Source: a virus
IMG/VR virus record: IMGVR_UViG_3300017742_000001
Span: 28,487 to 92,486 of that record
Strand: one strand, 5' to 3'
DNA length: 64,000 nt
Shown: one piece after another, positions 1-37,177 of the stretch
Numbering within the stretch: position 1 is the stretch's first letter
Layout of the letters: each line of letters opens with the position of its first letter
Made by a program: the position numbers and the translations under genes
Notes under the pieces: model-generated
Database searches by the model: none
Seen by the model: only the letters and a program-made list of their open reading frames with translations
What the model was told of the DNA's origin: nothing

Positions 1-1806
1 AAAATTGATGATGGATCATCAGTTGGTAAAGTTGCTAGAATAGTTGCAGTTGCGTCAGGAACATCAAATGCTGCTTACTCAGCAGACGGTAGTACTTGGA
101 CAGCAACTAGTTTGCCAGCAAGTGCAACTTGGATTGACGTAACATACGATAATTACAACCAAAGATTTGTAGCAATTGCAAGTGATAGTGTAACTGTAGC
201 GATATCATTAGACGGTGAAGTTTGGGATACTACAGGTACATTAAACAGCACAGGCTTTACTGCTATTACAGCAGGACAAAGTATATTAGTTGCTGTTAAA
301 TCAGGCACAACAACTGCTGCTTACAGTATAGACGGCGGAGTTAATTGGATTGATGTAACAACTTTACCAGCAGCAAGTGCTTGGTCAAGTGTAGCATTTG
401 GACAAAACCACTTTATTGCAACAGCAACTGACAGTAGTGCAATTGCATACAGTATTGATAAAGGTGCTACTTGGACTACAAAAGATATTAGTTCACCAGA
501 CTCAACAACACCAGCAGGATTGCAAAGAATTGCATACGGCCAAGGCCAGTTTATGATTACTGCATACAAAGCAGGTGAAGATGGCGAAGGTTATACTTAT
601 GTTGCAATGTCACAAGATGGTTATAACTTTACTTGGGAAGGTGTTGGATCTGGAGAGGTTACATCAAACGGATTTAACGCTGTAGCATTTGGTACATATC
701 AGCGTAACGGTTATTGGGTAGTTATTGATACAGACGCATCAGATAGCGTACAAAGAATTAGTGCAGGCGCAACAACAAAAGCAAGACCTGGAGTTGCACA
801 GAACAAAATCTTTGAAGTACGTATCACAGAACCAGGTTCAGGATATGAAACTGTACCTACAATGACTATTACTGATCCAAGTGAAATTTACCCAGTACCG
901 TTCGAAGTTAGAACAGGAAGCGGTGTACTTGCTACTCCATCATTTAGAAGTAGAGGTACAGGATACGTTTCAGCAAGTGCTGACTTAGTAGGTGGTAATG
1001 GTTATGCAGAGTTTAGTCAAAGCGGAAACTTTATTGCAATTAGACAATTAAGTGCTCGTCCGCCAACAGGATCAAACATTGTATTTGGACACTTACCAAA
1101 TGAAACATTCAAGTTGGTTAACATTGTTACACTACTTGGAGCAAATGATGGCGCATTAACTTGTTTCTTACAGATATCACCAGAAATGAAAGTTATTAAT
1201 GTTCCAGCAGACGGCGTAAGTGTTACAACAAGAATTAGATACTCACAGGTACGTTTAACAGGACACGATTTCTTAGATATTGGTACTGGATCGTTTACAG
1301 AAACAAACTATCCAAACAATCCTTTACAAGATCCTGTACAACTACAAGAAACTAGAGAACGTAATGGAGGTAGAGTGTTCTTCACTGCTACTGACCAAGA
1401 CGGTAACTTTAGAGTTGGTGACTTGTTTAGTATTGAACAATCAACTGGTGTTGCAACATTGAATGCAGATGCATTTAACATTGCAGGACTACAAGAACTA
1501 TCACTGGGTGAAGTTACACTAGGTGGCGGATCAGCAAGTATTGACGAATTTAGTACAGATCCGTTCTTTACAGCAGACAGTGACAATGTAGTACCAACGC
1601 AGAGAGCGATCAAAGCGTACATTAGTTCACAAATTGGTGGTGGTGGTGCATCACTTAACGTAAATAGTGTTACAGCAGGTTTTATATATATTGCTGCTGA
1701 TGCTATAACAACTACAACACAACAGGCTATTAATGTTGATGCAAATATGAACTTTAAAGGCGGTGTGCGTGGTTTACCAGTAGCGTGGAGTTACTTCTTA
1801 ACATAA
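1..1806 (+). CDS. Large virion structural / tail-fibre-type protein with BNR-like repeats (5'-partial)
   Basis: Frame is open from base 1, upstream of the ORF-track start at 112. Repeated W-x-x-VA-[YF]-G and S-x-D-G-x-x-W motifs. C-terminal 'RYSQVRLTGHDFLDIGTG...TDQDGNFRVG' segment typical of large myophage virion proteins. Confidence 0.65.
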   Translation, partial: KIDDGSSVGKVARIVAVASGTSNAAYSADGSTWTATSLPASATWIDVTYDNYNQRFVAIASDSVTVAISLDGEVWDTTGTLNSTGFTAITAGQSILVAVKSGTTTAAYSIDGGVNWIDVTTLPAASAWSSVAFGQNHFIATATDSSAIAYSIDKGATWTTKDISSPDSTTPAGLQRIAYGQGQFMITAYKAGEDGEGYTYVAMSQDGYNFTWEGVGSGEVTSNGFNAVAFGTYQRNGYWVVIDTDASDSVQRISAGATTKARPGVAQNKIFEVRITEPGSGYETVPTMTITDPSEIYPVPFEVRTGSGVLATPSFRSRGTGYVSASADLVGGNGYAEFSQSGNFIAIRQLSARPPTGSNIVFGHLPNETFKLVNIVTLLGANDGALTCFLQISPEMKVINVPADGVSVTTRIRYSQVRLTGHDFLDIGTGSFTETNYPNNPLQDPVQLQETRERNGGRVFFTATDQDGNFRVGDLFSIEQSTGVATLNADAFNIAGLQELSLGEVTLGGGSASIDEFSTDPFFTADSDNVVPTQRAIKAYISSQIGGGGASLNVNSVTAGFIYIAADAITTTTQQAINVDANMNFKGGVRGLPVAWSYFLT

Positions 1807-4347: not shown

Positions 4348-5265
4348 ATGGCAATAAGTTACGAAGGATTAAAGAAATTAACAGGTGCTGGTATTGTTGA
4401 CGGTACTATCGGTTCCGCTGACATTGGTTCAGGACAAGTTAACAGAGATAAAATTATTGATGGTTCAATTGATACAGATCAAATTGCAGACGGTGCAGTA
4501 ACAGGTGGTAAAATTGATCCAACAGCAGGATTAGTAGCAGCAAAATTTGCAGCAGGAGCAGTAGATTTAACAGGTGCAGCAGTAACAGGCTCACTAGCAC
4601 CATCAAAAGGTGGTACAGGTAAATCTAGTTTAGGTGCTGCAAACCAAGTTTTAAAAATTAATGATGCAGGTGATGGGTTTGATTACACTTATGGAGACTT
4701 AGTAAGTGTAAACTATTATACAAGTAACACTACTTGGAACAGACCAGCAGGCGTTCAAAAAATTAGAGTACAGATCTGCGGAGCAGGCGGTGGCGGAACA
4801 GGTCACGGCGAATCCGGAGGCGCTGGCGGTTATGCAGAAGAAGTTATTGATGTAACAGGCATTTCATCAGTTTCCGTTACACTTAACGGTGGAGGTGGTG
4901 GTGTAAACTATCACAACTCAGCGGGAAATGGAGGTTCAAGCAGTTTTGGTCCTTATCTATCAGCAAGTGGTGGAGAAGGTGCAAGACGTGTTGGTGGTCA
5001 CTCAGGTGGACGACCAGGCGTTGGATCAGGCGGAAATCTAAACCAGTATGGAGGCGGAGGACGCGGACATACACACCACGGTGGTGGTTTAGGAGGAAGT
5101 TCATATTTTGGTGGTTCTAGTATTGGTGTTCACGATAGTGGACCGCAACCATCACAACGTGAAGGACAAGCATCACCAGGTAGTGGTGGTGTTGGTGCAC
5201 CTCGTGGTAGAAGACGAGGCGGAACGGGCCGAACAGGCATCTGTATAGTATGGAACTACAAATAG
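4348..5265 (+). CDS. Gly-rich tail fibre/adhesin paralog 3
   Basis: Same architecture; shares VNYHN, HTHHGGG and GVHDSGPQPSQREGQA. Confidence 0.7.
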   Translation: MAISYEGLKKLTGAGIVDGTIGSADIGSGQVNRDKIIDGSIDTDQIADGAVTGGKIDPTAGLVAAKFAAGAVDLTGAAVTGSLAPSKGGTGKSSLGAANQVLKINDAGDGFDYTYGDLVSVNYYTSNTTWNRPAGVQKIRVQICGAGGGGTGHGESGGAGGYAEEVIDVTGISSVSVTLNGGGGGVNYHNSAGNGGSSSFGPYLSASGGEGARRVGGHSGGRPGVGSGGNLNQYGGGGRGHTHHGGGLGGSSYFGGSSIGVHDSGPQPSQREGQASPGSGGVGAPRGRRRGGTGRTGICIVWNYK

Positions 5266-5277
5266 GAGTAATAAATT

Positions 5278-5739
5278 ATGGCTAAAAGTGTATTAGTAGA
5301 TTTCCAAGGTGGTATTCAACATATCTGCGAGCCGGGCGACGAATTCGAAGTTTTCGAGGGCCCAGACGCAAAAGTTAGATGGACAACTTGTGCATCCGAT
5401 GATGTTAATGATTCTTGGGTTTTACATAACGGTGTATGGGAACAAAATGTCCAAGCACCACCATCGTATACTGTTTTAAGAAGAAACGCATACGGTGAAA
5501 TCGGTGAACAACTAGATATGTTGTTTAAAGATATGCAAAATGGAACAACAAATTGGCAAGATCATATTGCAGCAGTGAAAAACACTGTACCAGGACCAAG
5601 CAGTGACGAAGCAAGAGAAATGAGAGCTTCTCGTGTTGTTATTAATTGGGGTACAGAAGATTCACCTGCGTGGACAGATAATGTTAATAGAGAAGTACCA
5701 AATTTAGTTAAAAACGTAGGAAAACTTACGTCAGACTAA
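5278..5739 (+). CDS. Putative tail-fibre assembly/chaperone protein
   Basis: 'RRNAY..IGEQLDML..D...GT..W.DHI.AVK' motif common after phage fibre genes. Confidence 0.5.
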   Translation: MAKSVLVDFQGGIQHICEPGDEFEVFEGPDAKVRWTTCASDDVNDSWVLHNGVWEQNVQAPPSYTVLRRNAYGEIGEQLDMLFKDMQNGTTNWQDHIAAVKNTVPGPSSDEAREMRASRVVINWGTEDSPAWTDNVNREVPNLVKNVGKLTSD

Positions 5740-5768: not shown

Positions 5769-5774
5769 TAAATA
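5769..5774 (+). promoter_or_regulatory. T4-type late promoter core (TAAATA) heading the halogenase/oxygenase operon
   Basis: CTAAATAAG, 9 nt upstream of the ATG at 5784; same motif precedes structural genes throughout the window. Confidence 0.6.
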
Positions 5775-5783
5775 AGTAATAAT

Positions 5784-6383
5784 ATGCTATTAGATATGTT
5801 CCCTGTTCGTACCTATACAACAGAAATAAAATTAGAAGAAAGTGATAAGTCTAAAATTAATGACTTTTTGCTTACTTTATTTGATTCTGTAAATGATTCT
5901 AATCACGCATTAGAAGCCGGCGGCAAAAGTACACATAGTGTAAACAAAGAATTACACAATGAAGAATTATTTTTACCTCTAGTAACAAAAATATACCAGA
6001 ACCTTTTACATTACTGGAATGAAGCAGGGTTTAGTCCTGGATGCCGTCCTAAGATAGTATCTATGTGGGCAAACATACATAACAAAGATGATTATACAGT
6101 AGAACATTCTCATACCACACACGTACTAGCAGGATGTTACTATTTAAAATTTAATAGCGATGCAGGTAGTATTGTATTTGTTAATCCTAACGAATATGCT
6201 CAACATTATTATCCATACTCAGAAGCAGGAAAAGTTAACGATATGCATTACACAGTACACGGTGCTGAAGATAAATTAATACTCTTTCCTGCACACGTTA
6301 AACACTACACAGAAGTAAATAACTCAAATGATGTTAGAATTAGCATTAACTTTAATGTAGATCAAGAGGCAATTGATGATTAA
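5784..6383 (+). CDS. 2OG-Fe(II) oxygenase (TIGR02466-like, HxH type)
   Basis: W.N...HSH...GCYY...LILFP..VKH...RISINFN. Confidence 0.85.
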   Translation: MLLDMFPVRTYTTEIKLEESDKSKINDFLLTLFDSVNDSNHALEAGGKSTHSVNKELHNEELFLPLVTKIYQNLLHYWNEAGFSPGCRPKIVSMWANIHNKDDYTVEHSHTTHVLAGCYYLKFNSDAGSIVFVNPNEYAQHYYPYSEAGKVNDMHYTVHGAEDKLILFPAHVKHYTEVNNSNDVRISINFNVDQEAIDD

Positions 6384-7833
6384 TAATGTAACAATAGTAG
6401 GCGGCGGCACAGCAGGTTTAACTACTGCACTTATTCTACGTGCTGCATATCCTGATATGCAAATACAACTAATACGTTCCGATACTATCGATATTGTTGG
6501 AGTAGGAGAAGGCACTACTGAGCATTGGAGAGATTTTTTAGAATTTGTAAAAATTAATCCTGCAGATTTTTTTATACACTGCGGCAGTACATTCAAACAC
6601 GGAATTTATTTTAAGAATTGGAATGGTGACGGCAAAGATTATTTGCATAATGTTCCTTCATATCTTATTGAAGAAAGCAGAATAGGTCATCCTAATGTAC
6701 TACACAAACTGATTGTAGAAAACGAAAAACAAATAGATATGTTTGATGAATTTATTGTTAATTCGCAACACTATCAACCTGTATTAGAGAGTACAAATCA
6801 ATATCACTTTGACACATTTAAATTAAATGAATTTTTAAATGACTTGTGTAGCAAACGTAGAATCAACATTATTGTTGATACAATTAAATCTGTTGAAGCA
6901 CTTGGCACTATACAAAAACTACACGGCGAAAAAAACATTTACGAAAGTGACTTTTATATTGATGCAACAGGATTTGCTAAAGTAGTACACAGTAAAGTAG
7001 GTAGTGATTGGAAAGATTGTACAGAGTATTTGCCAATGAATAGTGCAATTACATTTCCTACTAAACTAGATGATAAGTTTCCTGCTTATACTGCTGCTAC
7101 AGCATTAAGTTCTGGGTGGGTGTGGCAAATACCTACACAAGAAAGATACGGCAACGGTTATGTATATTGCGATGATTTTATTACTGAAGATCAAGCAATA
7201 GAAGAAGTAACAAAATACTACGGACACGATCTAGATATACGTAAAAAGTTTAAATTTGGTGCAGGATATTTACGTAATGTGTGGAACAAAAACTGTCTAG
7301 CAGTTGGGCTTAGTGCAAGTTTTATTGAGCCTTTAGAAGCCACTAACATTGGAACAGCCATACAACAAGCATTAGCCTTTGTTAATCATCTAGGGCTTTA
7401 CGACCCAAATAGAGATGTTGTACAAGATAGTTATAACAAAAAATTTGAAAAAGTTTTTCAGAATACTGTAGACTTTGTACAGTTGCACTACTTTACTAAA
7501 AGAAAAGATTCTGAGTTTTGGAAAAACAGCCACAACATTAAGAAGACAGATTTTAATGAAGCAACATTAGAACTGTACAAAAAGCAAATACCGTTATGGA
7601 CTGACTTTGCACACCCATATGTATTGTTTAATAACTTTAATTGGATAATGGTATTAACAGGATTGGGTATAATTGATAGACAATCATATTTAGATCAATG
7701 GGAACAACTGCCATATGAAACAAAGACAGAAGCAGATATTAAACTAGATGTATATTATAGTAGAGAGGCTGCTGTATTAGGACATTGGGAAGCAATTAAC
7801 TACATTAAGGAGATACATAATGGCGCAAATTAA
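6376..7833 (+). CDS. Flavin-dependent (tryptophan) halogenase-family protein 1
   Basis: GGGTAG, GVGEGT, STFKHGI (catalytic Lys), WVWQIP, FIEPLEAT. Confidence 0.9.
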   Translation: MINNVTIVGGGTAGLTTALILRAAYPDMQIQLIRSDTIDIVGVGEGTTEHWRDFLEFVKINPADFFIHCGSTFKHGIYFKNWNGDGKDYLHNVPSYLIEESRIGHPNVLHKLIVENEKQIDMFDEFIVNSQHYQPVLESTNQYHFDTFKLNEFLNDLCSKRRINIIVDTIKSVEALGTIQKLHGEKNIYESDFYIDATGFAKVVHSKVGSDWKDCTEYLPMNSAITFPTKLDDKFPAYTAATALSSGWVWQIPTQERYGNGYVYCDDFITEDQAIEEVTKYYGHDLDIRKKFKFGAGYLRNVWNKNCLAVGLSASFIEPLEATNIGTAIQQALAFVNHLGLYDPNRDVVQDSYNKKFEKVFQNTVDFVQLHYFTKRKDSEFWKNSHNIKKTDFNEATLELYKKQIPLWTDFAHPYVLFNNFNWIMVLTGLGIIDRQSYLDQWEQLPYETKTEADIKLDVYYSREAAVLGHWEAINYIKEIHNGAN

Positions 7834-9409
7834 AAAGATTTGTATCGTTGGCGGAGGTAGTGCAGGCTGGATGACAGCAGCAATGCTTTCAAAAAAATTA
7901 AAAAATATAGAACTTAGTCTAGTTGAATCACCTAAAGTCTCAACTGTAGGTGTAGGAGAATCTACACTAGGGCATATTAATAGATATTTGGATATGCTTG
8001 AATTGAAAGATAGTGACTGGATGGCAGAGTGTAATGCAACTTACAAGACTAGTATTAGATTCACAGACTTTAAAGAAAAAGACGGAACTAGTTTTCAATA
8101 TCCTTTTGGAACAATGCCTTTTGATCACACATCAAACGGAATAATGGATTACTTTTGGCATCAAGCATATACTGAAAATGAATATGATCATAGTGAGTTT
8201 GCAAGTTGGGCGTTGAATCAAACTATTATGACTGATCAAAATAAGTTGTATGACAACGCAGATGAAAGACAACAAATTAGAGGATTTGATTTCCACCTTA
8301 ATACAGCATACCATATGGATGCAGAAAAATTTGGTCAATATTTAAAAAATAATATTGCTCTTCCTAATGGTACAAAACATTTCTGGGATACTGTTAAAGA
8401 TGTAAAACAAGATGAAAATGGAAATATTATTGAACTAATAGGAGAAGAACAATCTCACTTTGCAGATTTATATATTGACTGTACTGGATTTACAAAATTA
8501 TTAATTGAAAAAATAATGAAAACTAAATTTGTAAGTTTCGGTGATGTATTAATGAATGATCGTGCAATGGCAACTCGTATTCCTTACAACGATAAAGAAA
8601 ATGAAATGCACAGTTTTACAGATTGTACTGCTATTGAAAACGGTTGGGTATGGGATATTCCTTTATATCATAGACGTGGTACAGGATATGTACACAGTAG
8701 CAAATTTGTTGATTGGGATCAAGCAGAAGTAGAATTTAAAAACTATCTAAGCAAAAGATTAAAACCAGAACAAATAGAAAAATTAGAATTTAACAGAATT
8801 AATATCAGACACGGTGTACAAGACACTCCTTGGAAAGGAAACGTATGTGCTATAGGATTAGCATTAGGGTTTGTTGAGCCTTTAGAAAGCACAGGACTGC
8901 TTACAACGCACGAAAACATTATACGCTTAGTAGGAACACTCACACGTAGAAACGGACTTGTAAATAATATGGATGTTGAAGGATGGAATTCAGCAGCAAG
9001 GTTTGAACTTGATAACTTCAAACAATTTGTAAGTATGCACTATGGTTTAAGTGGCCGTAGAGATACTCCTTATTGGAAGCACGTAACTGATACTGTAAAT
9101 TACATTCCTAATCCTGACGAAGCGTGGGATAATTGTGTACAAGATTACAACTATAGAATGAACACACGTCTACATCTAGACGGAGATACTAATGACGGAA
9201 AATATTTTATCCTAGCAGGTATGGGATACAATCCTATTAGTAAAGCACACGCAGATATGGAAGCATTTAGATATCCAGGCTTGCCAAGTATTTGGAAAGC
9301 AGCAATGAATAAACACGAAAAACATAAACAAGACGTTTTAGAATTATGTAAAACATTACCAACGCATTATCAATATTTGAAAGGTAAGTTCTATGACGGA
9401 AAAGAATAG
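7820..9409 (+). CDS. Flavin-dependent (tryptophan) halogenase-family protein 2
   Basis: GGGSAGW, GVGEST, ATYKTSI, WVWDIP, FVEPLESTG. Confidence 0.92.
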   Translation: MAQIKKICIVGGGSAGWMTAAMLSKKLKNIELSLVESPKVSTVGVGESTLGHINRYLDMLELKDSDWMAECNATYKTSIRFTDFKEKDGTSFQYPFGTMPFDHTSNGIMDYFWHQAYTENEYDHSEFASWALNQTIMTDQNKLYDNADERQQIRGFDFHLNTAYHMDAEKFGQYLKNNIALPNGTKHFWDTVKDVKQDENGNIIELIGEEQSHFADLYIDCTGFTKLLIEKIMKTKFVSFGDVLMNDRAMATRIPYNDKENEMHSFTDCTAIENGWVWDIPLYHRRGTGYVHSSKFVDWDQAEVEFKNYLSKRLKPEQIEKLEFNRINIRHGVQDTPWKGNVCAIGLALGFVEPLESTGLLTTHENIIRLVGTLTRRNGLVNNMDVEGWNSAARFELDNFKQFVSMHYGLSGRRDTPYWKHVTDTVNYIPNPDEAWDNCVQDYNYRMNTRLHLDGDTNDGKYFILAGMGYNPISKAHADMEAFRYPGLPSIWKAAMNKHEKHKQDVLELCKTLPTHYQYLKGKFYDGKE

Positions 9410-10895
9410 TGTTAGTGCAGTAATACTAGGCGGCGGCACAGCAGGCTGGCTAGCAGCACTATTTGTAAAACACTATTGGCCTAGTATTGATTTGACTGTT
9501 GTTGAAGATCCAACTAAGCCACCTATCATTGCAGGAGAGTCAGGAGGATTTGCACTTTCTCAAATGTATGATACAATAGGTATTCCGTTTAATGATTGGG
9601 CAAAAGCAGTAGGTGCAACTCCGAAACTAGGCGGCAAGTTTGTTGGCTGGAATGGAAAAGACTCTGTATTTTGGCACAGTCTTATTACACATCATTACTA
9701 TGATGCGTGGGGCAAACGTTTTCCTAGTTTAGAAGAACGTTATTACTTTTTACGTATGCTTGTAGGTATGGATGTAGAAATTGCTGACGTTGTTCCTACA
9801 GGACATTTATTAAAAAATAATAAAGTACCATTCGATGACTACGGATCAATTGTAGAAAAAATATTTCCTATGTGGCACTTTGATAGTCGTGCTAATGCTG
9901 CATATCTAAAAGAGAAAGGATTGCAACGTGGTATAACTCTTGTTGAAGGAACTTACATTGCAAGTGAAAAAGATAATCTAGGTAAAATTAAAAGTATTAA
10001 ATTATCAAATGATATTACATTACCTGCAACTTGGTTTTTTGATTGCAGTGGATTTGCTAGATTACTTCTTGAAAAAGAAATGAACGCTACGTCAGTAGAT
10101 CAGTCTGCATATTTTCCTGCTTGTGCAGTATTGCCTTGGTGGGACAAACCTTGCTATAATACAGCAACACTTGCAACTACAATGGATGCAGGTTGGACTT
10201 GGAAAATAGGATTAAAAGAAAGAACTGGACAGGGTTATTTGTATGATCCTAATCATCTTACAAAAGATCAAGCACTAGACGAAATTAGAAACAAGTTTGG
10301 TAAGCATATAGAACCAGTAGCAAATTTACAGTTTACGCCAAGCATAATGAAACAGAGCCAATTAAAAAATGTAATTGGAGTAGGTTTAAGTACAGGTTTT
10401 ATGGAACCGCTTGAAGCAAACGGAACAGGAATTATTGTTGATCAATTATTAACTTTATTACAAACTTGGAATCCAACGCAGTATAACAAGTTAAATGAAG
10501 ATCAATTTAACAGTAGTGTATACCATCAATATTTAGGAATACGTGACTTTTTATCCTTACATTACAGAGGTAAAGGTAACGGTTCTCAATTTTGGAAAGA
10601 ACAATCTAATCCAAATAATGTACCAGATACACTACAAGAGAGACTTTTAGAATTTGAAAGGTTTTTTGCAACAGGACATATGGACTATACAAAATATCTT
10701 AATGGATTTAGTTTTGAAAGTTGGATAACAGTGATACAGGGAATGAGTCTTTGTAATAGTAAAGCCATATCTGTTGGTGATAAGCACCAACTGATCGATA
10801 ATTACTATAAAGAGACGGTAGAGCCCTTTGATCACATTTATAGAAGGTGTATAAAAATAGAAAAATGGATAGAAAAAACTTCGAATATAAAGTAA
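9393..10895 (+). CDS. Flavin-dependent halogenase-family protein 3
   Basis: GGGTAGW, ATPKLGG, WTWKIG (variant of WxWxIP), FMEPLEANG. Confidence 0.85.
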   Translation: MTEKNSVSAVILGGGTAGWLAALFVKHYWPSIDLTVVEDPTKPPIIAGESGGFALSQMYDTIGIPFNDWAKAVGATPKLGGKFVGWNGKDSVFWHSLITHHYYDAWGKRFPSLEERYYFLRMLVGMDVEIADVVPTGHLLKNNKVPFDDYGSIVEKIFPMWHFDSRANAAYLKEKGLQRGITLVEGTYIASEKDNLGKIKSIKLSNDITLPATWFFDCSGFARLLLEKEMNATSVDQSAYFPACAVLPWWDKPCYNTATLATTMDAGWTWKIGLKERTGQGYLYDPNHLTKDQALDEIRNKFGKHIEPVANLQFTPSIMKQSQLKNVIGVGLSTGFMEPLEANGTGIIVDQLLTLLQTWNPTQYNKLNEDQFNSSVYHQYLGIRDFLSLHYRGKGNGSQFWKEQSNPNNVPDTLQERLLEFERFFATGHMDYTKYLNGFSFESWITVIQGMSLCNSKAISVGDKHQLIDNYYKETVEPFDHIYRRCIKIEKWIEKTSNIK

Positions 10896-11518
10896 AAGAA
10901 TATTCTATGTCTAATTTTCCTGATAGGAAAATTTTTGTTTACGATGACGTTTTGCCGTATTCAGTAAGGACAGGTATTTACGAAATGTGCAGCAAGTCGT
11001 TGTACAAATTAAATGGTACAGATAACGGTGTTTTAGAAAACTCACAACATATTTCAGTTGTATCGACCTGGCAAGTAGATGATTTCAAGGCTACTCAGTT
11101 GCTAGAAAATTTACCCCAAGAAGTTATAGAACGACATAATATGTATTACAAGTTTCATCATAACACTATGATTAACTTATGTACTCCACACGATAGATTT
11201 CATACGCATATTGACAACGACTCCAATGGATGGACAATGGTTTATTATGCAAACTTGCAATGGAACATTGAATGGGGCGGAGATACTTGCTTCTTAAACG
11301 AAGAAGGTACTGAATTTGAACACGTATGTTCATATAGACCCGGTCGTTTAGTTCTATTCCATCCGCAGATTCCGCATATGATTCGACCTCCAACACAACT
11401 TGCTTCTGAACACGGCCAATTCTTTAGATTTTCATTAGCAACAAAATTTGTTCCTGCGTTAGGTGAAGCAAGAGTGTTAGCAGATGGAATGAAGGACGCT
11501 AGTCTAGGCGGAGGATAA
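10865..11518 (+). CDS. 2OG-Fe(II) oxygenase, prolyl-4-hydroxylase-like
   Basis: HID...YYAN..W..EWGGDT.F...PGRLVLF...IPH...R.SLA.K. Start uncertain (10847, 10865 or 10907). Confidence 0.85.
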   Translation: MDRKNFEYKVKEYSMSNFPDRKIFVYDDVLPYSVRTGIYEMCSKSLYKLNGTDNGVLENSQHISVVSTWQVDDFKATQLLENLPQEVIERHNMYYKFHHNTMINLCTPHDRFHTHIDNDSNGWTMVYYANLQWNIEWGGDTCFLNEEGTEFEHVCSYRPGRLVLFHPQIPHMIRPPTQLASEHGQFFRFSLATKFVPALGEARVLADGMKDASLGGG

Positions 11519-11519
11519 T

Positions 11520-12677
11520 ATGAAAGTTGCAGTTATAGGTATCGGCACTGCCGGACTTCAAACACTAGCATACTTTATGAACACACTAGATGATGACATT
11601 GAAGTATACAGCATACACGATCCTGAACAAAAAATTCTAGGTATTGGAGAAAGTACAACAACATTTCTACCTCACATATTAGCACAGGCTTGTGATTTTA
11701 GAATGTTAGATGACGGTCCTGCCTTAGACGCTACAACTAAACACGGTGTAAAATATAAAAACTGGAGAGACAACGATTTCCACAATCAGTTTATACCTCC
11801 TTATCACGCTATACACTTTAACAACTTTAAATTAAGCGAACTAGTATTAGGACGATTGAGAAACAAAAAAGGTTTCTTTGAAATACACGGTGCAATTGAA
11901 TCTATTAAACAAACAGATACACACGTAAATTTACTTATTGATGGTACTGAACATAAGTTTGATTATATTATTGACTGTATGGGATATCCAGATGATTATT
12001 CTGATTATGAATTAAAAGATGATCTTCCTGTTAACCACGCTATAGTAAATGCTATAGACAAACCAGGTGATTGGAATTATACATATCATCAGGCAACTAG
12101 AAACGGTTGGATGTTTGGTATACCTTTAGCAACAAGACAAGGTTGGGGATATCTATTTAATGATAAAATTACCAGCGTCGAAGAAGCAAAAGAAGATATG
12201 CAAACACTGTTTGATGATCCTATCCAAGTAAGAGATTTTAGTTGGAAAAACTACTATAAGAAAAATACTATAGATGGCAGAATTATTAGCAATGGTAATA
12301 GAGCATTATTTTTTGAACCATTAGAAGCATTAAGTGGTTCGTATTATGAAGCAGTAGCAATTGAGGCTGCAAATGTAATTATGGGCGATAGTACAGCAGA
12401 CGTAGCAAATGCTTCGTTGCGTCATACTGCTGAAGTATATTGTGCATTTATTTACTTTGTATATCACGGCGGAAGTACATTTGATAGCGAGTTCTGGAAA
12501 ATAACAGTTGACAAAACAACAAAAGCATTGCATAATAGTGATGTGTTTCAGAATGTAAAAAGTATGATGCAAGTATTAAAAACAAACGGTGTTGATGACC
12601 CAAGAATTATTTTTAAACCATTAAGTATAGAACTTTGGTCATTAGTTGATAAAAAGATGGGATATAATTACTTCTAA
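11520..12677 (+). CDS. Short flavin-dependent halogenase-family protein 4
   Basis: GIGTAG, GIGEST, ATTKHGV, WMFGIP, FFEPLEA; 385 aa, about 100-140 aa shorter than its paralogs. Confidence 0.8.
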   Translation: MKVAVIGIGTAGLQTLAYFMNTLDDDIEVYSIHDPEQKILGIGESTTTFLPHILAQACDFRMLDDGPALDATTKHGVKYKNWRDNDFHNQFIPPYHAIHFNNFKLSELVLGRLRNKKGFFEIHGAIESIKQTDTHVNLLIDGTEHKFDYIIDCMGYPDDYSDYELKDDLPVNHAIVNAIDKPGDWNYTYHQATRNGWMFGIPLATRQGWGYLFNDKITSVEEAKEDMQTLFDDPIQVRDFSWKNYYKKNTIDGRIISNGNRALFFEPLEALSGSYYEAVAIEAANVIMGDSTADVANASLRHTAEVYCAFIYFVYHGGSTFDSEFWKITVDKTTKALHNSDVFQNVKSMMQVLKTNGVDDPRIIFKPLSIELWSLVDKKMGYNYF

Positions 12678-13273
12678 TGGAATATCAAATTGTAGATAAT
12701 GTAATACCAAAAGTATATCAAGACGATATTGAAGATTTACTTTTAGGTAATAATAGTTTTCCTTGGTACTATGTTGCTGACGTAACACTTACTGCTGACA
12801 AAATTAAAAGATACAACACTAGAGCAATTTGTCCTGCATTTAATCACGTGTTTTATGAAGATGTAAATGACAATAACGATGCTTGGTGGCCTTTTATTAA
12901 GCCGTTAGTTTATATGGCGTGTGATAAAATTAATGTTGATGTGGAGCACGTTTATCAAGCACGTTCTTTTTTACAATTACCTATTAGTAAAAATGTGCCA
13001 AGTAATCATCCACATATCGACTTGCAGTTTGATCATTTAGTATGCTTGTATTATGTAGTTGATAATGAAGCACCAACTACATTATATAAACAAACACGGC
13101 ACGATACACAATCTGCAAATATGGAAGATGTAGAATGGGAACCATTAGTTACTTGTCAACCTAAAAAAGGAAGAGCATTATTCTTTAACGGCAAATACTA
13201 TCATTCAAGTTCTAGTCCAAATCAATCATCTAGAGCAATTATTAATTTTGATGTAATAGGAAATACACAATGA
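12677..13273 (+). CDS. 2OG-Fe(II) oxygenase (HxD type)
   Basis: PHID...LYYV...PKKGRALFFNG.YYHSS...R.IINFD. Confidence 0.85.
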   Translation: MEYQIVDNVIPKVYQDDIEDLLLGNNSFPWYYVADVTLTADKIKRYNTRAICPAFNHVFYEDVNDNNDAWWPFIKPLVYMACDKINVDVEHVYQARSFLQLPISKNVPSNHPHIDLQFDHLVCLYYVVDNEAPTTLYKQTRHDTQSANMEDVEWEPLVTCQPKKGRALFFNGKYYHSSSSPNQSSRAIINFDVIGNTQ

Positions 13274-13851
13274 TAGAAAATTATTTTGGTATTCCTGTTA
13301 AGTTAGTTGATACTGATAACCAAGATGTTATCAATGAGGCTGTACAAGTTGCAGAAACACAAAGAAGTAATACAACTAATCCTTGGTCAAGCGATATACA
13401 AAGCACATTTAAGTTTGATGAATATATAAATGTATTAAAAGATCAATGTCCGCTTTTAAGCAAACACATTTATAAACATATACATCAGTATCTAGCAGAA
13501 CTAGCAGTTGATCCTCCATACACACTTGTAAACTTAGACGAATCGTGGTATAATTATAGCCAGCCGGGTATGTGGCAAGAGTTTCATATGCATCCAGAAA
13601 GCGATATAAGTGGAATATTTTATGTAACTGCTCCTAAAGATAGTGGCAACATAATGTTTAATCCGCCAGCAAGTGCATACAACTTTCATAAACTAACACA
13701 CAGAGCAAAAAATATGCAGCCTAATATTTGGTTTGAACCTATTGTAGGACGATTGTTGTTATGGCCTTCATATTTAGAACATATGGTTGTAAAAAACAAA
13801 AGCAATGAAGAAAGAATTAGCATTGCATTTAATGTAAAGTTGATAAACTAA
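13270..13851 (+). CDS. 2OG-Fe(II) oxygenase (TIGR02466-like, HxH type)
   Basis: WYN...HMH...SGIFY...LLLWPSYLEH...RISIAFN. Confidence 0.85.
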   Translation: MIENYFGIPVKLVDTDNQDVINEAVQVAETQRSNTTNPWSSDIQSTFKFDEYINVLKDQCPLLSKHIYKHIHQYLAELAVDPPYTLVNLDESWYNYSQPGMWQEFHMHPESDISGIFYVTAPKDSGNIMFNPPASAYNFHKLTHRAKNMQPNIWFEPIVGRLLLWPSYLEHMVVKNKSNEERISIAFNVKLIN

Positions 13852-14492
13852 TGACAGATCATATTGAAGTAGTACCTATTTTTCCAACACCTGTATACTT
13901 TGCTATTTGCGAAGATGAAATACAGCAATGCATTAACTATATGGAAAACGCTCCAATTGATGTTGAAAAGGATCAACAAACAATTAAAGAGTATGGTACA
14001 ATAAGTCAAGACAATTATATTCTAAATCGTGAAGAAATGACTCCGTTAAGAAACTGGATTATGAAGCAGGTTAACAACTATGCTGAAAATGTACTTGCTT
14101 GGAACTTTAATAAAATTGACTTAACTATGAGTTGGGTATCGATAAAAGAAAAAGGTCAGCGACACAAGTATCATATTCATCCTAACAGTTTAATTTCCGG
14201 AGTGTTTTACTGGGAAGAAAGCGAGATAGAACCTATCAGTTTTTTACGTCCTAGAAAATTTAACAACTTTGAAATAGATCGTAATGAAGATATTGATGCA
14301 CCGTATGCATTTGATACGCATTCATTCACTCCAAGAAAACATACACTTGTACTATTTCCTAGTGAGCTTCAACATAGTGTGGGAAAAATAAAGCAAGACC
14401 TTCCGAGAAAGAGTCTTGCTTTTAATACTTTTATCTTTGAAAAGATTGGAAGACCTGACAGCCTTACTGAATTAGATCTTAGTAAAAACTAG
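13851..14492 (+). CDS. 2OG-Fe(II) oxygenase (TIGR02466-like, HxH type)
   Basis: HIHPNSLISGVFY...LVLFPSELQH...RKSLAFN. Confidence 0.85.
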   Translation: MTDHIEVVPIFPTPVYFAICEDEIQQCINYMENAPIDVEKDQQTIKEYGTISQDNYILNREEMTPLRNWIMKQVNNYAENVLAWNFNKIDLTMSWVSIKEKGQRHKYHIHPNSLISGVFYWEESEIEPISFLRPRKFNNFEIDRNEDIDAPYAFDTHSFTPRKHTLVLFPSELQHSVGKIKQDLPRKSLAFNTFIFEKIGRPDSLTELDLSKN

Positions 14493-14668
14493 TAGTTATT
14501 AGCACTATCTAATTCGTCTTCAGTAAGAATATCGCCGACCATTACTGGAGCGCCGCCATCCTTGACTAATGCTATCTGTCTATCTTCAGTGTTGTACAAA
14601 AACATTGCATAATCATATGCTTTATAATATTTGTCGAAAGTTTTTCCTTCAACTGTAAATGTTGCCAT
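14489..14668 (-). CDS. Small hypothetical protein (59 aa, not in ORF track)
   Basis: MATFTVEGKTFDKYY...DSANNY*; AGGAG RBS upstream; continues the minus-strand operon. Confidence 0.7.
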   Translation of the reverse strand: MATFTVEGKTFDKYYKAYDYAMFLYNTEDRQIALVKDGGAPVMVGDILTEDELDSANNY

Positions 14669-14702
14669 AGTAACAAGTCTCCTTAATACGTCTGTTATAT
14701 GT

Positions 14703-15317
14703 TTATTTATTCAATTTAGCCCAATTAAAGTGGTTTTCTTTTCCTAGCGTGTTGGGCATAATATTTACCGCTACTGTATAACGTTCAGAAACAGCGTTAA
14801 AATTAGCAGCACTACGGTGGTTTATGTAGGATGGAAATAGAACTACATTATCTTGCTCTGGTCTAATTGCTATTTCAGGGCAATTGTAGTTTGTAAACTT
14901 GTCTACTTCGGTTTGTAAACTAAGTTGCAGTGGATTCTTAGTAGTTTGGAATAGTGTAGGGCCTGTTCCTTCGTCTGCTTTAAGATAGTAGACTGCTGAA
15001 ATAAGTGAATTAGAATGCCAGTGCCAGTCAATACTTCCGCCATCGGGCATCTTGTTAAGCCACGCTTGTGTGATATACATACCGTCGTGCTTATATCCTA
15101 GTTCTGTCCAATAGTGTTCAGCCTTTCTTACAATCCAATTTAGTAGTGGTTGCCATTCGGCAACTTCTTGTAGATTAGTTTGACTTTGATCAAAATCGCC
15201 TAAGCCGTTGTTGTCAGTTTTCCACTCTATACTGTTCATTAAACTATCGATATCAAGTTTAATGTCAGTGTTAGTTGCTAAGCCAATGCCTTCTGGAAAT
15301 ATTGACCTAATTTTCAT
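14703..15317 (-). CDS. 2OG-Fe(II) oxygenase (TIGR02466-like, HxH type)
   Basis: WLN...HWHSNSLISAVYY...VLFPSYINH...R.T.A.N. Confidence 0.85.
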   Translation of the reverse strand: MKIRSIFPEGIGLATNTDIKLDIDSLMNSIEWKTDNNGLGDFDQSQTNLQEVAEWQPLLNWIVRKAEHYWTELGYKHDGMYITQAWLNKMPDGGSIDWHWHSNSLISAVYYLKADEGTGPTLFQTTKNPLQLSLQTEVDKFTNYNCPEIAIRPEQDNVVLFPSYINHRSAANFNAVSERYTVAVNIMPNTLGKENHFNWAKLNK

Positions 15318-15571
15318 TAGTCAGCAACGGCGATATCAGTAATTGCATCCCAACCAACAATATAACGTTGATGAGTTTCAAGATCAATAACTTCAGCAAG
15401 TCTCTTTTCTTTATCTCTCTGTAAGATCTGACCTTTACCTGAAATCAATGCTTTTGGAATCACTTCATCTGATTGTGATAACAATGGCATTGTATTAGGA
15501 TCAATCTCTGCTTCATACATACAGAAGTAATTTACTCCGGGTTCCAATGTTTCTACTGTAATAATACTCAT
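15317..15571 (-). CDS. Hypothetical protein
   Basis: Translationally coupled within the minus operon. Confidence 0.6.
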   Translation of the reverse strand: MSIITVETLEPGVNYFCMYEAEIDPNTMPLLSQSDEVIPKALISGKGQILQRDKEKRLAEVIDLETHQRYIVGWDAITDIAVAD

Positions 15572-16300
15572 TTACTTTTTCTCCTTTTTAACTATTCGTT
15601 GGTGCTCTTTGTAGCCATTTTTAAATTTGCCGGCCCACCACAAATAACTTTGGTTAGTTATATTATATAGCCGGTCTTTGTACTCAGACACTTTATGTTT
15701 GATTACATTTCTTTGCACAGGAATAAACATACAAAGAGGTGTTCCCCTTTCAATAATATATTCTCCATAGTCAAAGAATGCCATCTGCTGAGAACATTCG
15801 TGATGTATGTCAGACCAAAACGAGCCTGGTAATACTTCGAATCTTTTATCGTAATGAAACAACATTGGTAGTTGTAACACTGACCATCCTTTAGGAGTTT
15901 TTAGTCTCCACGGACTTATTGCTTTCAATACCATACTATACTTGTCAGGATCAGGCAAATGATTTGCAAATTGTAAATCGCCGTGATTAGTAAATTCAAA
16001 TCTTTCATCTGCTGATTCTACACTGTATGTTCTATCTTTATTAATAGTAATTTTAAAATCTGTCCACATTCTTAATACATATGCTTGCTTCCAAAATTCA
16101 GCATATGCAGGACATTGTTTTGCAGTTTCTACTCTACCATTTGCCCCAAAATTAGTATATACATCTCTTGCAGTCGTTGGCATTTCTTTAAACCAATCCG
16201 GTATACATTGTGTAGCAGGAACCGGCGGAGCAGTATGTTCTAGTCCTTTCTCTATAGACCAGAATTCAATAGTTGGTTGAGTTTTTTGAAACCACTTCAT
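15572..16300 (-). CDS. Hypothetical beta-rich protein with TAKxCPA motif (possibly dUTPase-like/DUF6065-like fold), paralog A
   Basis: IPDWFK...TAKQCPA...SPWRLKTPKGWS...I.RGTPL. Confidence 0.5.
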   Translation of the reverse strand: MKWFQKTQPTIEFWSIEKGLEHTAPPVPATQCIPDWFKEMPTTARDVYTNFGANGRVETAKQCPAYAEFWKQAYVLRMWTDFKITINKDRTYSVESADERFEFTNHGDLQFANHLPDPDKYSMVLKAISPWRLKTPKGWSVLQLPMLFHYDKRFEVLPGSFWSDIHHECSQQMAFFDYGEYIIERGTPLCMFIPVQRNVIKHKVSEYKDRLYNITNQSYLWWAGKFKNGYKEHQRIVKKEKK

Positions 16301-17025
16301 TTATTTTCTTGCTTTTTAATGATAGTTTGATGTTCTTTATATCCGCCTGCAAATTTACCAGAAAACCAATAATATTGTTTTTCTTCTAGACGTTTTAATT
16401 CATCGTCCATTTCTCTAACTTCAAGAGTTATTTTTTCTCTTTTTATTGGAACGTACATTGCTAAAGGCGTGCCTCGTGGAATCATATATTCACCATATTC
16501 CTTAAATGCCATTTGCGGGTTTACTTCGTAATGTATATCAGCACTCATTACACCAGGAAGTACTTCAAATCTTTTATCAAAATGATAGTGTAAAGGCAAT
16601 TGCATTAAATCATAACCTTTAGGTGTTACCATTCTCCAAGGACTGTTTGCTTTTAATACCATTGCATATTCACGAGTGTCTAAATGATCTAAAAACTGAT
16701 TATCTAAATGATTTGTAAAACTAAAAAGTTTTTCAGGAGTTTTAACTTCCCAAGTAGTATCTTCATTTATTTTAATCCACAGATCGCACCATAGATATAA
16801 AACAACGCCTGACTTATAATAATCTACAAACGCAGGACACTTTTTTGCTGTACCTGGGTGTCCGCTCCATTGTTCCATAATTTCTTTAGGCATTTTTTTA
16901 AACCAATCAGGTATTGCTGCTGTTGCAAGTTTTGGAGGGTAGATTGTTTCTAGCCCTCGTACAGTTGTATAGCAGGTTACTAATGGTTGTTTCTTTTTAA
17001 ATTTGTTTTTAAGCCAGTTAATCAT
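16297..17025 (-). CDS. Hypothetical beta-rich protein with TAKxCPA motif, paralog B
   Basis: IPDWFK...TAKKCPA...SPWRMVTPKGY...IPRGTPL; same length (242 aa) as paralog A. Confidence 0.5.
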   Translation of the reverse strand: MINWLKNKFKKKQPLVTCYTTVRGLETIYPPKLATAAIPDWFKKMPKEIMEQWSGHPGTAKKCPAFVDYYKSGVVLYLWCDLWIKINEDTTWEVKTPEKLFSFTNHLDNQFLDHLDTREYAMVLKANSPWRMVTPKGYDLMQLPLHYHFDKRFEVLPGVMSADIHYEVNPQMAFKEYGEYMIPRGTPLAMYVPIKREKITLEVREMDDELKRLEEKQYYWFSGKFAGGYKEHQTIIKKQENK

Positions 17026-17614
17026 ATTGTTCCGTTGTAAAATTAAAAGTTAGCACACATCTTGAATAACCACTAGTAGGCTTTTTACTTGAATGATAAT
17101 GTTTACCATTAAAAATAAACATCTTTCCTTTTTTAGGTGTTGATGTAGTTAAAACTGTATAGTTGTCACTTGGTTGTGTTTCGTTATAAACACTAGTGTC
17201 GCCATCGCTATCATTTACATAATACAATCCAGTCCAGTGAGGACAGAAAAAATCTAAATGAGGCTCATCGCCGCCATCTACAGGCTCAGCATTATCGACC
17301 ATACTATCACTAGCATTGCTTGGTACAAGCAAACCACAACGCAGTCTCAGCAACTTTCCTAAATCCTTGCCCAATACATCTCCCATCATATACCAAATAG
17401 GTAGTAACAACTGTAAATGATTACTTGCAGTTGATCCTTTTGGTAAATCAGGACCGTCATTTAGTGCAAGATGTGTGAATCCTAAACTGTATGTATTAGT
17501 ATTATTATAGTGTTCGTGATTAGCAAACCACGGAAACTCCGTACTATACATTAGGCTTTCTACTTCATCTTGATAGGCCTTAGGAAGTGCGTTTTCGACT
17601 GTAATATGTTCCAT
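17018..17614 (-). CDS. 2OG-Fe(II) oxygenase (HxD type)
   Basis: PHLD...LYYVNDSDGDT...PKKGK..IFNG.HYHSS...R.VL.FN. Start placed at MEHITV (17614), 5 nt after TAAATA. Confidence 0.85.
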   Translation of the reverse strand: MEHITVENALPKAYQDEVESLMYSTEFPWFANHEHYNNTNTYSLGFTHLALNDGPDLPKGSTASNHLQLLLPIWYMMGDVLGKDLGKLLRLRCGLLVPSNASDSMVDNAEPVDGGDEPHLDFFCPHWTGLYYVNDSDGDTSVYNETQPSDNYTVLTTSTPKKGKMFIFNGKHYHSSKKPTSGYSRCVLTFNFTTEQYD

Positions 17615-17619
17615 AAAAC

Positions 17620-17672
17620 TATTTATGGTGCTTTTTCGCATAGACACGTTATCTTGGCAGTCGGATAAATAC
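17620..17672. promoter_or_regulatory. Back-to-back late promoters (TAAATA on - at 17620-17625; on + at 17667-17672)
   Basis: Motif on both strands between divergent genes. Confidence 0.65.
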
Positions 17673-17700: not shown

Positions 17701-18795
17701 ATGGCAAGATTACCAATTATTAATAACCTTAGAGTAGTGCCAAGAGATACCGATTTTCTTGATAGAAAGTTGGGTTTACGCGGTGAAATTTTCTATGATA
17801 ACGACAAAAAGACTTTACGCCTGTATGATGCACAAACAGTAGGCGGAATGGAACTTGTAAAAGAAGATTTATCAAACGTAACTAATGCTATATTTGCTGC
17901 AAAAGCATTAACAGCAGGTGTAGGTGGCGGCGGAAGCGGCAGTATCGAAGTAAGTGATAGTGCGCCCACTGAGCCAGAAGAAGGAACAATTTGGTTTGAT
18001 AGTTCAACAGCAAGATTATATGTATATGTTAATGACGGAAATAGCGCACAATGGATTCAACCAGCAGTACCAGCATCACAAAGTGGTGGCGGTGGCGTAT
18101 CTAGTTGGGGAGACTTACAAGATAAGCCTACAACATTAGGCGGGTATGGCATTACTGATGCTGTTCCTAAAACAGGTGCAACTATAACAGGTGCAATTGA
18201 TGCTCCTACAGTAGCCGCACACGGATTAAGATTTTTATATCCAACAATAAGCGACTTCCCAGATGCAACTACGTATCACGGAGCAGTTGCACACAGTCAC
18301 GCAGATGGCGCATTATATTTTGCACACGCTGGCGGATGGGTCGAACTTGCAAACAAAACAATATTAACAACATACGCAACTACTACAGCACTTAACACTG
18401 CTACATCAAACGCTTCCAATTGGGACTCGGCATTTGGTTGGGGTGATCATTCTGTTGCTGGATACTTAACAACAGAATCTGATACACTTGATACAATTAC
18501 TGGTAGAGGCGCAACGACAACAAACACAATTACCGTCGGCGGATTGAATACATCTACGTTTAGTGACACTGGTATTGGAGCAACTGCAATTAATAGTTCG
18601 TCAGCAGTAACAATTACTACTGTAGACGGCGCAAGATTTGCAGGTGGTCCTGTAAGACTGCCATCGATGGACGATACTGCACGTAATGCTTTAACTGCTG
18701 TGAACGGTGATATAATTTATAATACAACTTCCAATAAGATAGAGGGTTATCAAAATGGTGGTTGGATTGAATTAGACACTGGCGCGGCAGCATAA
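17701..18795 (+). CDS. Virion structural / tail-fibre-like protein
   Basis: 'GEIFYD....TLRLYD...GG' N-terminus; 'P..P.EGTIWFDS' and 'KPTTLGGYGITDA' fibre motifs; 'G.IIYNTT..KIEGY.NGGW' C-terminus. Confidence 0.65.
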   Translation: MARLPIINNLRVVPRDTDFLDRKLGLRGEIFYDNDKKTLRLYDAQTVGGMELVKEDLSNVTNAIFAAKALTAGVGGGGSGSIEVSDSAPTEPEEGTIWFDSSTARLYVYVNDGNSAQWIQPAVPASQSGGGGVSSWGDLQDKPTTLGGYGITDAVPKTGATITGAIDAPTVAAHGLRFLYPTISDFPDATTYHGAVAHSHADGALYFAHAGGWVELANKTILTTYATTTALNTATSNASNWDSAFGWGDHSVAGYLTTESDTLDTITGRGATTTNTITVGGLNTSTFSDTGIGATAINSSSAVTITTVDGARFAGGPVRLPSMDDTARNALTAVNGDIIYNTTSNKIEGYQNGGWIELDTGAAA

Positions 18796-26521: not shown

Positions 26522-26552
26522 TATTTACCTAATCCGTCTCAAGGCATAAATA
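26522..26552. promoter_or_regulatory. Back-to-back late promoters between the neck genes
   Basis: TATTTA (minus-strand TAAATA) at 26522-26527 and TAAATA at 26547-26552. Confidence 0.65.
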
Positions 26553-26557
26553 CTTAT

Positions 26558-28336: not shown

Positions 28337-28654
28337 GTCACCCTGTTTCCAGCGTATATTCTCTTTAGATAATACGCTCCTACAATTAGCACATACAGTT
28401 TTAAGATTTTGCGGTCTACAATTGTCAAGGTTTTCATCTACGTGAAATACTCTGAATACTTCCTTGTGCTGTGATTTGAATCCGCATTTATCGCACTGTT
28501 TTTTAATTTTGTAACCTGCACGTTGCCATCTAGGCACACCGTGATACAGACCGTGTTTACTGCAACCTTCACACAAACTTCTGTAGTATGTCTTTCCTTG
28601 CTTCTTATAGTTTACTGCACGGGGTCTTAATCCGCACTTACATAGTGGTCTCAT
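28319..28654 (-). CDS. Zn-binding HNH-like protein
   Basis: CxC..CxxC..CxxC, 'VFHVDENLDN....NL.TVCANC'; start MRPLC at 28654, 5 nt after TAAATA. Confidence 0.7.
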   Translation of the reverse strand: MRPLCKCGLRPRAVNYKKQGKTYYRSLCEGCSKHGLYHGVPRWQRAGYKIKKQCDKCGFKSQHKEVFRVFHVDENLDNCRPQNLKTVCANCRSVLSKENIRWKQGDLVADY

Positions 28655-28785
28655 ACATATATTTACACCTTTTCGACCCCTTTTTATATAGGTATAAACA
28701 GCACTTTTTATCCGATCCAACTAAATACATTAGTAATACAGATTAGGTATAACAATATACTTTTACATTACCAGGAGAAACAGGA

Positions 28786-32842: not shown

Positions 32843-32858
32843 ATGGCTAAATAATAGT

Positions 32859-35334: not shown

Positions 35335-35342
35335 ATAGTAAT

Positions 35343-37172: not shown

Positions 37173-37177
37173 CTAGT

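Follow-up and report, generated by a model that had tools for sequence, protein, structure and literature searches.

A 64,000-nucleotide stretch of viral DNA (positions 28,487 to 92,486 of the IMG/VR record IMGVR_UViG_3300017742_000001; hereafter the window) carries, at 5784-17614, an island of 15 genes encoding four predicted flavin-dependent halogenases, seven oxygenase-family proteins, two paralogues with a probable dUTPase fold and two small open reading frames (ORFs). The island is best read as an enlarged form, in a jumbo phage, of the 'fibre-to-neck' dioxygenase/halogenase cassette of the cyanomyoviruses, in which it would serve as the enzymatic part of a fibre-tip module. The substrates of the cassette may be the adjacent fibre-type proteins or a Trp-rich protein of 153 residues (p153), a tentative reading to which we give a probability of about 0.4. 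Phages would then halogenate and hydroxylate the proteins of their own tail-fibre tips, and the natural substrates of the halogenases of the VirX1 type would be the Gly-rich tip proteins and/or p153, a generalisation held at the same rough probability. An earlier examination of the letters alone (the sequence-only reading) had listed four halogenases, seven oxygenases, two paralogues with a Cys-Pro (CP) motif and two small ORFs, and this inventory was confirmed by the ORF listing and the Pfam searches.

Linkage of the Gly-rich proteins and the halogenases

Three Gly/His/Tyr-rich paralogues of about 305 aa each are encoded in tandem upstream of the island (2521-3432, 3432-4346 and 4348-5265, plus strand); they match PF21722 (Gly_rich_2) above the cut-off, as well as phrog_863 and phrog_21412, and are followed by p153 (5278..5739, plus strand; phrog_1787). 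For a census of this family, IMG/VR loci were chosen solely by similarity to a Gly-rich alignment composed of the three window proteins and their cyanophage homologues, and the best 80 loci were taken, of which 68 have at least 2.5 kb, and 59 at least 6 kb, past the last Gly-rich gene. A halogenase with 36-98% identity to those of the window was found no more than 2.2 kb downstream of the last Gly-rich gene in all the 68 loci, with a median gap of 614 bp, and p153 in 67 of them. Among the 59 loci with the longer downstream sequence, oxygenases are present in 56 and a dUTPase-fold gene in 44. In cultured phages, the Gly-rich family was identified in 19 of 50,697 records, with a halogenase adjacent in each of the 19. 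The co-occurrence of such islands with Gly/His-rich fibres, proposed in the sequence-only reading as a check on its interpretation, is therefore observed throughout the loci and the cultured records.

The module occurs in two groups of phages, the Kyanoviridae and a separate jumbo clade. Its order in the cultured cyanomyoviruses (Syn9, Syn10, S-RIM44, P-TIM40, S-CREM1, S-WAM1, S-SZBM1, P-RSM6 and Sf-FP1) is a large fibre protein, two to four Gly-rich proteins (about 270-310 aa), a p153 homologue, one or two halogenases, a protein like gp43 of Syn9 and a string of oxygenases; in 11 species of cultured cyanophages, p153 is encoded immediately before a halogenase. The linkage is strict from the Gly-rich proteins to the halogenase, while the converse fails, halogenases being found away from fibres as well. 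Since a halogenase follows them in every relative checked, the Gly-rich proteins are concrete, if unproven, candidates for the substrate.

Late-type promoter signature

The motif TAAATA separated by five nucleotides from an ATG (TAAATA-N5-ATG) was counted eight times in the window, where 2.3 would be expected; none of 100 shuffles reached this count, and all eight occurrences are at ORF starts. They precede the island gene OxyP2 (17612-17625, minus strand) and the genes for a head-tail adaptor (26547-26560, gene start 26558), an unannotated protein (28652-28665, start 28654, minus strand), the tail tube (32848-32861, start 32859), two virion structural proteins (35332-35345, start 35343; 38768-38781, start 38779), the large terminase (37167-37180, start 37178) and a nucleotidyltransferase-like protein (45371-45384, start 45382). 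The last of these genes, which carries the late signature too, spans 45382-46152 and is of the heptose-phosphate adenylyltransferase type (phrog_7878). The eight sites suggest that leaderless or near-leaderless late mRNAs may arise from promoters of the T4 late type.

The minus string of the island opens with the canonical, leaderless-type arrangement, in which TAAATA (17625-17620) stands five nucleotides before the ATG at 17614; because of this spacing, the true start of OxyP2 is judged to be this ATG and not the GTG at 17647. At the plus string, TAAATA (5769-5774; CTAAATA from 5768, plus strand) lies nine nucleotides before the ATG at 5784, a looser fit than the canonical five. The sequence-only reading had placed a late TAAATA motif at the start of both strings: this stands for the minus string, which begins as do the tail tube, the adaptor and the terminase genes, and is weaker for the plus string on account of its spacing. 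In four of the five cyanophages examined (Syn9, S-RIM44, P-TIM40 and S-CREM1), the p153 homologue heads the halogenase operon and has a TAAATA some 25-30 nt ahead of it. We infer the late timing of the island from a motif common to the structural genes; a full-text literature search for halogenases together with late genes and a transcriptome found nothing. Sigma-70-like promoters and terminators showed no enrichment within the island.

Organisation of the island

The 15 genes form two convergent and tightly packed strings, which meet stop to stop at 14489-14492, with fibre-type genes bordering the island on both sides; the coordinates and the Pfam and PHROG matches agree in this with the sequence-only reading. 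Neighbouring genes overlap by 1-17 nt or are separated by 0-11 nt, with the exception of the small ORF s59, which lies 34 nt past its neighbour. The plus string comprises, in order, Oxy5a, Hal1, Hal2, Hal3, Oxy3, Hal4, OxyP1, Oxy5b and Oxy5c, and the minus string OxyP2, the two dUTPase-fold paralogues, s84, Oxy5d and s59. Relatives preserve the complete island, s59 and s84 included, down to about 50% identity, and the form with four halogenases and an inverted sub-string is limited to the close relatives of the window (loci L016-L020 and L096-L100).

Halogenases

All four halogenases are predicted members of the PF04820 flavin-dependent halogenase family (PrnA/RebH/VirX1 type), with scores of 91-355 bits against a cut-off of 21 (E 7e-26 to 7e-106). 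An alignment with gp41 and gp42 of Syn9 shows the GxGxxG motif for flavin adenine dinucleotide (FAD), the catalytic Lys (K79 of PrnA/VirX1) and the Glu of FxEPLE to be invariant in the four window proteins and the two Syn9 proteins. Hal1 (6376..7833, plus strand; PF04820 E 4.7e-93) and Hal2 (7820..9409, plus strand) retain an intact WxWxIP motif, which is changed to WxWxIG in Hal3 (9393..10895, plus strand; PF04820 E 1.3e-77) and to WxFxIP in Hal4 (11520..12677, plus strand). Hal2 is an orthologue of VirX1, which it matches over the full length (PDB 6qgm, E 2.3e-137), with 43% identity to the Syn9/Syn10 proteins. Hal4 is a compact form of 385 aa that matches PF04820 in two stretches; in the alignment with the other halogenases, it is missing about 65 aa internally as well as most of the C-terminal domain.

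VirX1 forms a trimer whose active site is unusually open, and it has no known substrate in nature (PMC8407142). The intact motifs, the loss in Hal4 of the part enclosing the substrate and the openness of VirX1 are together compatible with a large substrate.

Oxygenases, dUTPase-fold paralogues and small ORFs

The set of seven oxygenase-family proteins consists of four PF13759 members, one PF13640 member above the cut-off and two paralogues with sub-threshold Pfam matches. The PF13759 proteins are Oxy5a (5784..6383, plus strand; E 1.1e-16, 61.5 bits against a cut-off of 27), Oxy5b (13270-13851, plus strand; E 2e-25), Oxy5c (13851-14492, plus strand; E 1.7e-18) and Oxy5d (14703..15317, minus strand; E 1.8e-17). 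They share a conserved H-x-H...H pattern with no conserved acidic residue, and their sole PDB relatives, 3bvc and 2rg4, are both uncharacterised. In Oxy3, OxyP1 and OxyP2, the translations show H-x-D and, further on, a His followed by an Arg, in keeping with the iron-binding triad (H-x-D/E...H) of the 2-oxoglutarate (2OG)/Fe(II) oxygenases; of the three, Oxy3 alone passes a Pfam cut-off. Oxy3 (10907..11518, plus strand; alternative starts at 10865 and 10847) is of the prolyl-4-hydroxylase type (PF13640, E 7.6e-07, 30.4 bits against a cut-off of 27), and its predicted membership of this family is in line with a large substrate. OxyP1 (12677..13273, plus strand), with a sub-threshold PhyH match, and OxyP2 (17018..17614, minus strand), which heads the minus string and falls just under the PF13640 cut-off with 25.8 bits, are oxygenase-like paralogues with a common N-terminus.

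The identity of any of the seven as a 2OG-dependent halogenase was considered and rejected, the H-x-A/G variant being present in none of them. The 2OG oxygenases include modifiers of bases such as AlkB and TET/JBP, and none of the seven proteins matches these families in the Pfam scans. In the cyanophages, gp51 and gp53 of Syn9 (15424-17131 of locus L011) and one S-RIM44 gene (13306-15203 of locus L012) are named 'DNA endonuclease V' in RefSeq, yet they are homologous to the OxyP1/OxyP2-type paralogues, and the oxygenase string in which they lie also holds genes named 'minor coat protein' and 'ferrochelatase'; these annotations appear to be erroneous.

The two paralogues of 242 aa (15572-16300 and 16297-17025, minus strand; phrog_7084) have 48% mutual identity and an invariant Cys-Pro, and are homologues of gp43 of Syn9, as shown by tblastn; the homologue adjoins a halogenase in 14 cyanophage records. 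An AlphaFold2 model of a paralogue (mean predicted local distance difference test, pLDDT, 81) matches dUTPases by Foldseek (E 1e-4) and by VIA (Z 11.2), a modelled dUTPase fold that confirms the published assignment of gp43. At the level of the sequence, the family is in weak contact with DUF6065 only, and a weak dUTPase Pfam match was obtained for 2 of 27 members. The family as a whole has 3380 representatives at E <= 1e-3.

The small Tyr-rich protein s59 (59 aa; 14489..14668, minus strand) has an ATAAATA motif of its own and an AAGGAG ribosome-binding site. Its identity in relatives is 42-76%, with an invariant core FD.YYKA..YA and a remainder that diverges fast. The conserved protein s84 (15317..15571, minus strand) is 43-86% identical in relatives and has no family match in Pfam or PHROG. 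Both are restricted to this sub-clade, and an equivalence with the small ORFs at the same place in the cyanomyoviruses was rejected, as no relation is detectable.

Candidate substrates and flanking fibre-type genes

The Gly-rich paralogues combine a fibre-repeat N-terminal region with the Gly/His/Tyr-rich C-terminal PF21722 domain, and in phrog_863 and phrog_21412 a domain of this type forms the end of long tail-fibre proteins. His accounts for up to 5-6% and Tyr for 6% of their residues. The invariant residues of the family alignment are one Tyr, three His and one Glu; a single Trp is near-invariant, and a His/Tyr-rich segment is variable. A search of the PDB sequences with the family profile found nothing significant.

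The alternative substrate candidate, p153, has 3-5% Trp across its family, W35 and W132 being invariant, and W132 sits in a variable C-terminal tail of low model confidence. The overall model is poor (pLDDT 63.5) and matches only its own family and, weakly, tail-fibre assembly proteins. Its core is placed by the ESM Atlas (0.84) with the Caudo_TAP_N and XkdW clusters and has weak Foldseek matches to tail-fibre assembly proteins, and shorter relatives of p153 occur in phages without halogenases. It is possible that p153 is a tail-fibre assembly chaperone, a modelled likeness to be taken as a lead because these matches are weak.

Upstream of the Gly-rich genes lie, all on the plus strand, fibA (1..1806), the C-terminal part of a large fibre or structural protein that runs off the window start and has weak BNR/Sortilin-type repeats; fibB (1828-2148), a small fibre-type protein matching phrog_11338 'tail fiber protein'; and fibC (2164-2505), another small fibre-type protein with matches to many tail-protein PHROGs and a weak match to T4_gp9_10_N. 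About 45 related loci also have fibA conserved ahead of the module. The right flank, also on the plus strand, comprises a fibre-type protein (17701-18795; phrog_9729), an S8 subtilase (18795-21983; PF00082) and a protein like baseplate-wedge/tail-fibre connectors (22005-22871; phrog_677). The subtilase is 1062 aa long and has a weak cupredoxin-like match at its C-terminus; in the relatives L018-L020 both it and the preceding fibre-type gene are missing, and the island directly abuts the connector gene.

Source phage and relation to known clusters

The window is part of a 92.5-kb IMG/VR contig with a CheckV completeness of 26%. Its large terminase (37178-38767) has 55% identity to that of the Pseudomonas jumbo phage PA5oct, the best cultured match, and 60-75% identity to those of module-bearing contigs of 130-278 kb (36-75% complete), which points to the membership of the contig in an uncultured clade of jumbo phages with genomes of about 360 kb, outside the Kyanoviridae. 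This clade and the cyanomyoviruses have the fibre module in common. A megablast search of the island against cultured phages gave no match, the kinship being visible at the protein level only.

The type of cluster is already published, a fact on which the sequence-only reading was silent. Iyer et al. 2010 (PMC2938197) described the gp40-gp60 cluster of Syn9 and proposed that it makes halogenated and hydroxylated secondary metabolites. Protection of the host by an antibiotic is another published idea for the cyanophage halogenase/oxygenase genes, and a non-functional transient gene (Sullivan et al. 2005), modulation of 2OG and NtcA by the cyanophage 2OG oxygenases (Sullivan et al. 2010) and, for another cyanophage cluster, decoration of the capsule (Iyer et al. 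2021) have also been considered. The literature search revealed no link between halogenases and the modification of tail fibres, and such virion chemistry was found in no searchable paper.

By its gene content, the island is an expanded variant of the published cluster in a different phage lineage. The Syn9-type cluster, found also in S-RIM44, P-TIM40, S-CREM1, S-WAM1 and S-SZBM1, has the same families in the same order (Gly-rich proteins, gp40/p153, a VirX1-type halogenase, a gp43-like protein and PF13759/PF13640 oxygenases) and the same position after the fibre genes. The island likewise packs four halogenase genes into 12 kb alongside seven genes of the oxygenase family, the latter of at least three types, and it has a gp43-like dUTPase-fold protein with an invariant Cys. 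None of the island proteins matches JmjC or Cupin_4, so that a counterpart of the JmjC/MINA-type gp49 of Syn9 was not found; this does not exclude membership of the Syn9 type, because such a member is not in all the described versions. Unlike the Syn9-type clusters, the island has four halogenases, including the compact form, in place of one or two, a duplicated dUTPase-fold gene, a part inverted into a convergent string and two clade-specific small ORFs, and its carrier is a probable jumbo phage and not a member of the Kyanoviridae.

Two further systems bear comparison. VirX1, the iodinase/brominase of Syn10 (PDB 6QGM; Gkotsi et al. 2019 via PMC8407142), has the same motifs as Hal2, though the identity between the two is only about 43%. 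In bacterial operons described by Iyer et al. 2010 (PMC2938197), 2OG dioxygenases and sulfotransferases stand beside tail-collar/collagen-like Gly-rich proteins that are their predicted substrates. These operons resemble the island in their logic, with tailoring oxygenases beside a putative substrate of the Gly-rich or fibre type, but they are bacterial, have no halogenases and encode other oxygenase families, and the assignment of the substrate there is likewise a prediction.

Proposed mechanism and points against it

The module, running from shaft proteins through two to four Gly/His/Tyr-rich tip-type proteins and p153 to the halogenases, the dUTPase-fold Cys protein and the oxygenases, would be expressed late, alongside the structural genes. 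With flavin reduced by the host, oxygen and halide, the halogenases would produce halogenated aromatic side chains (Trp, Tyr, perhaps His), and the oxygenases would add hydroxyl groups to side chains of p153 or of the fibre-tip proteins encoded by the phage itself, either ahead of fibre assembly or in the course of it. The stability of the tip or its binding to the receptor may be changed as a result. Precedents exist for the separate steps: MibH and SrpI are flavin halogenases acting on peptides or proteins, with Trp halogenation in a ribosomal peptide, and the chlorovirus prolyl-4-hydroxylase and mimivirus L230 are viral collagen-type hydroxylases that act on the viruses' own Gly-rich structural proteins. 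We know of no phage virion protein that is halogenated.

Several points weigh against this mechanism. A modified residue has so far been observed nowhere. Inheritance of the cassette as a block could also yield the strict synteny. In S-B64 the halogenase lies between recombination genes and a peptidase, and in S-MbCM6 among hli and psbA genes, while Sf-CH11 has a fibre-adjacent halogenase and prolyl-hydroxylase-type oxygenases, yet no Gly-rich protein or p153. The IMG/VR loci picked by the dUTPase-fold protein (L021-L092) are mostly without a nearby halogenase, and often have the gene beside oxygenases. The number of halogenases is unrelated to the Trp/Tyr/His content of the Gly-rich proteins, and a search among longer proteins for fusions of the Gly-rich domain to a halogenase or an oxygenase gave eight matches, none of them such a fusion. 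VirX1 halogenates many small aromatic compounds in vitro (PMC8407142). The virion proteome of S-SZBM1 (PMC9146016, Table 1) includes the fibre proteins encoded upstream (_51 to _54), and the Gly-rich proteins _48 and _49 and the p153 homologue _47 are undetected despite 8-9 usable tryptic peptides each; this non-detection would be expected as much from a low copy number or from modifications left out of the search as from a role outside the virion. The claim of the sequence-only reading that virion proteins are the substrates thus gains from the synteny, the signature and the absence of a scaffold described below, and loses from the halogenases in replication and metabolic modules and from the Gly-rich proteins undetected in S-SZBM1.

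Alternative explanations

The main rival to modification of the fibre-tip proteins is a small-molecule pathway, in which a free amino acid or a host metabolite would be successively halogenated and hydroxylated to an antibiotic, a toxin or a signal. It was argued for Syn9 by Iyer et al. 2010 from the analogy with antibiotic pathways employing several dioxygenases, and it gains from the acceptance of many small aromatic compounds by VirX1, from the presence together of several unrelated oxygenase families, which is typical of biosynthetic clusters, and from the halogenases and oxygenases being undetected in the S-SZBM1 virion. Against it, a profile search found neither a condensation domain of non-ribosomal peptide synthetases (NRPS; PF00668) nor Flavin_Reduct in the 92-kb contig and five relatives (up to 75% complete), all of them incomplete records, and no carrier protein (PP-binding, PF00550) in the contig, as the sequence-only reading had stated for the NRPS scaffold and the flavin reductase. 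The Pfam scans of the island genes revealed neither a transporter nor a resistance family. The late-type leaderless signature is common to the structural genes, and the linkage to a single fibre-type family in 68 of 68 loci would be left unexplained. On this balance, a small-molecule product is considered unlikely.

Less probable still is a dedicated small-protein substrate in the manner of the ribosomally synthesised and post-translationally modified peptides (RiPPs), by which p153, s59 or s84 would become a modified chaperone or a released peptide outside the virion. The constancy of p153 near the halogenase (67 of 68 loci), its Trp content throughout the family and the invariance of W132 within a variable tail favour it, as do the promoter-like motif, the strong ribosome-binding site and the invariant tyrosines of s59. 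However, the core of p153 is weakly like tail-fibre assembly proteins and has shorter relatives in halogenase-free phages, s59 and s84 are limited to a sub-clade, and the Pfam and PHROG scans of the island proteins detected neither a leader-recognition domain nor a protease or an exporter. The candidate substrates, at 153-305 aa, are unlike a short leader/core RiPP precursor, so the description of the island as 'RiPP-like' in the sequence-only reading could be retained only as an analogy of function.

A host-directed role, in which the oxygenases would burn 2OG to steer nitrogen signalling through NtcA or the enzymes would modify the host envelope, is very improbable. It draws on the proposal of Sullivan et al. 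2010 and on the capsule idea of Iyer et al. 2021, but it leaves the four halogenases and the dUTPase-fold proteins without a role, the burning of 2OG alone needs no seven divergent oxygenases, and in its position and promoter signature the island goes with the late structural genes. The least probable is the modification of nucleotides or DNA, with nucleotides bound by the dUTPase-fold proteins and bases modified by the oxygenases and halogenases, for which the fold of the 242-aa paralogues and the known base-modifying 2OG oxygenases could be cited, but the lack of AlkB or TET/JBP matches among the seven oxygenases, the scarcity of dUTPase Pfam matches (2 of 27 family members, weak) and the place of the cassette in the fibre module, not among replication genes, argue against it.

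Implications

Marine phages abound in flavin halogenases and VirX1 is a biocatalyst in use, while for the oxygenase arrays of the cyanophages speculative roles alone have been offered since 2007-2010. The strict linkage singles out the Gly/His/Tyr-rich fibre-type proteins and p153 as specific candidates for the substrate, and as both exist in the cultured phages Syn9, Syn10 and S-RIM44, the question of the substrate is directly testable. If the modification of the fibre-tip module is true, enzymatic halogenation and hydroxylation would join the ways in which phages tune their host-binding organelles, and genes now listed as auxiliary metabolic genes would be re-labelled.

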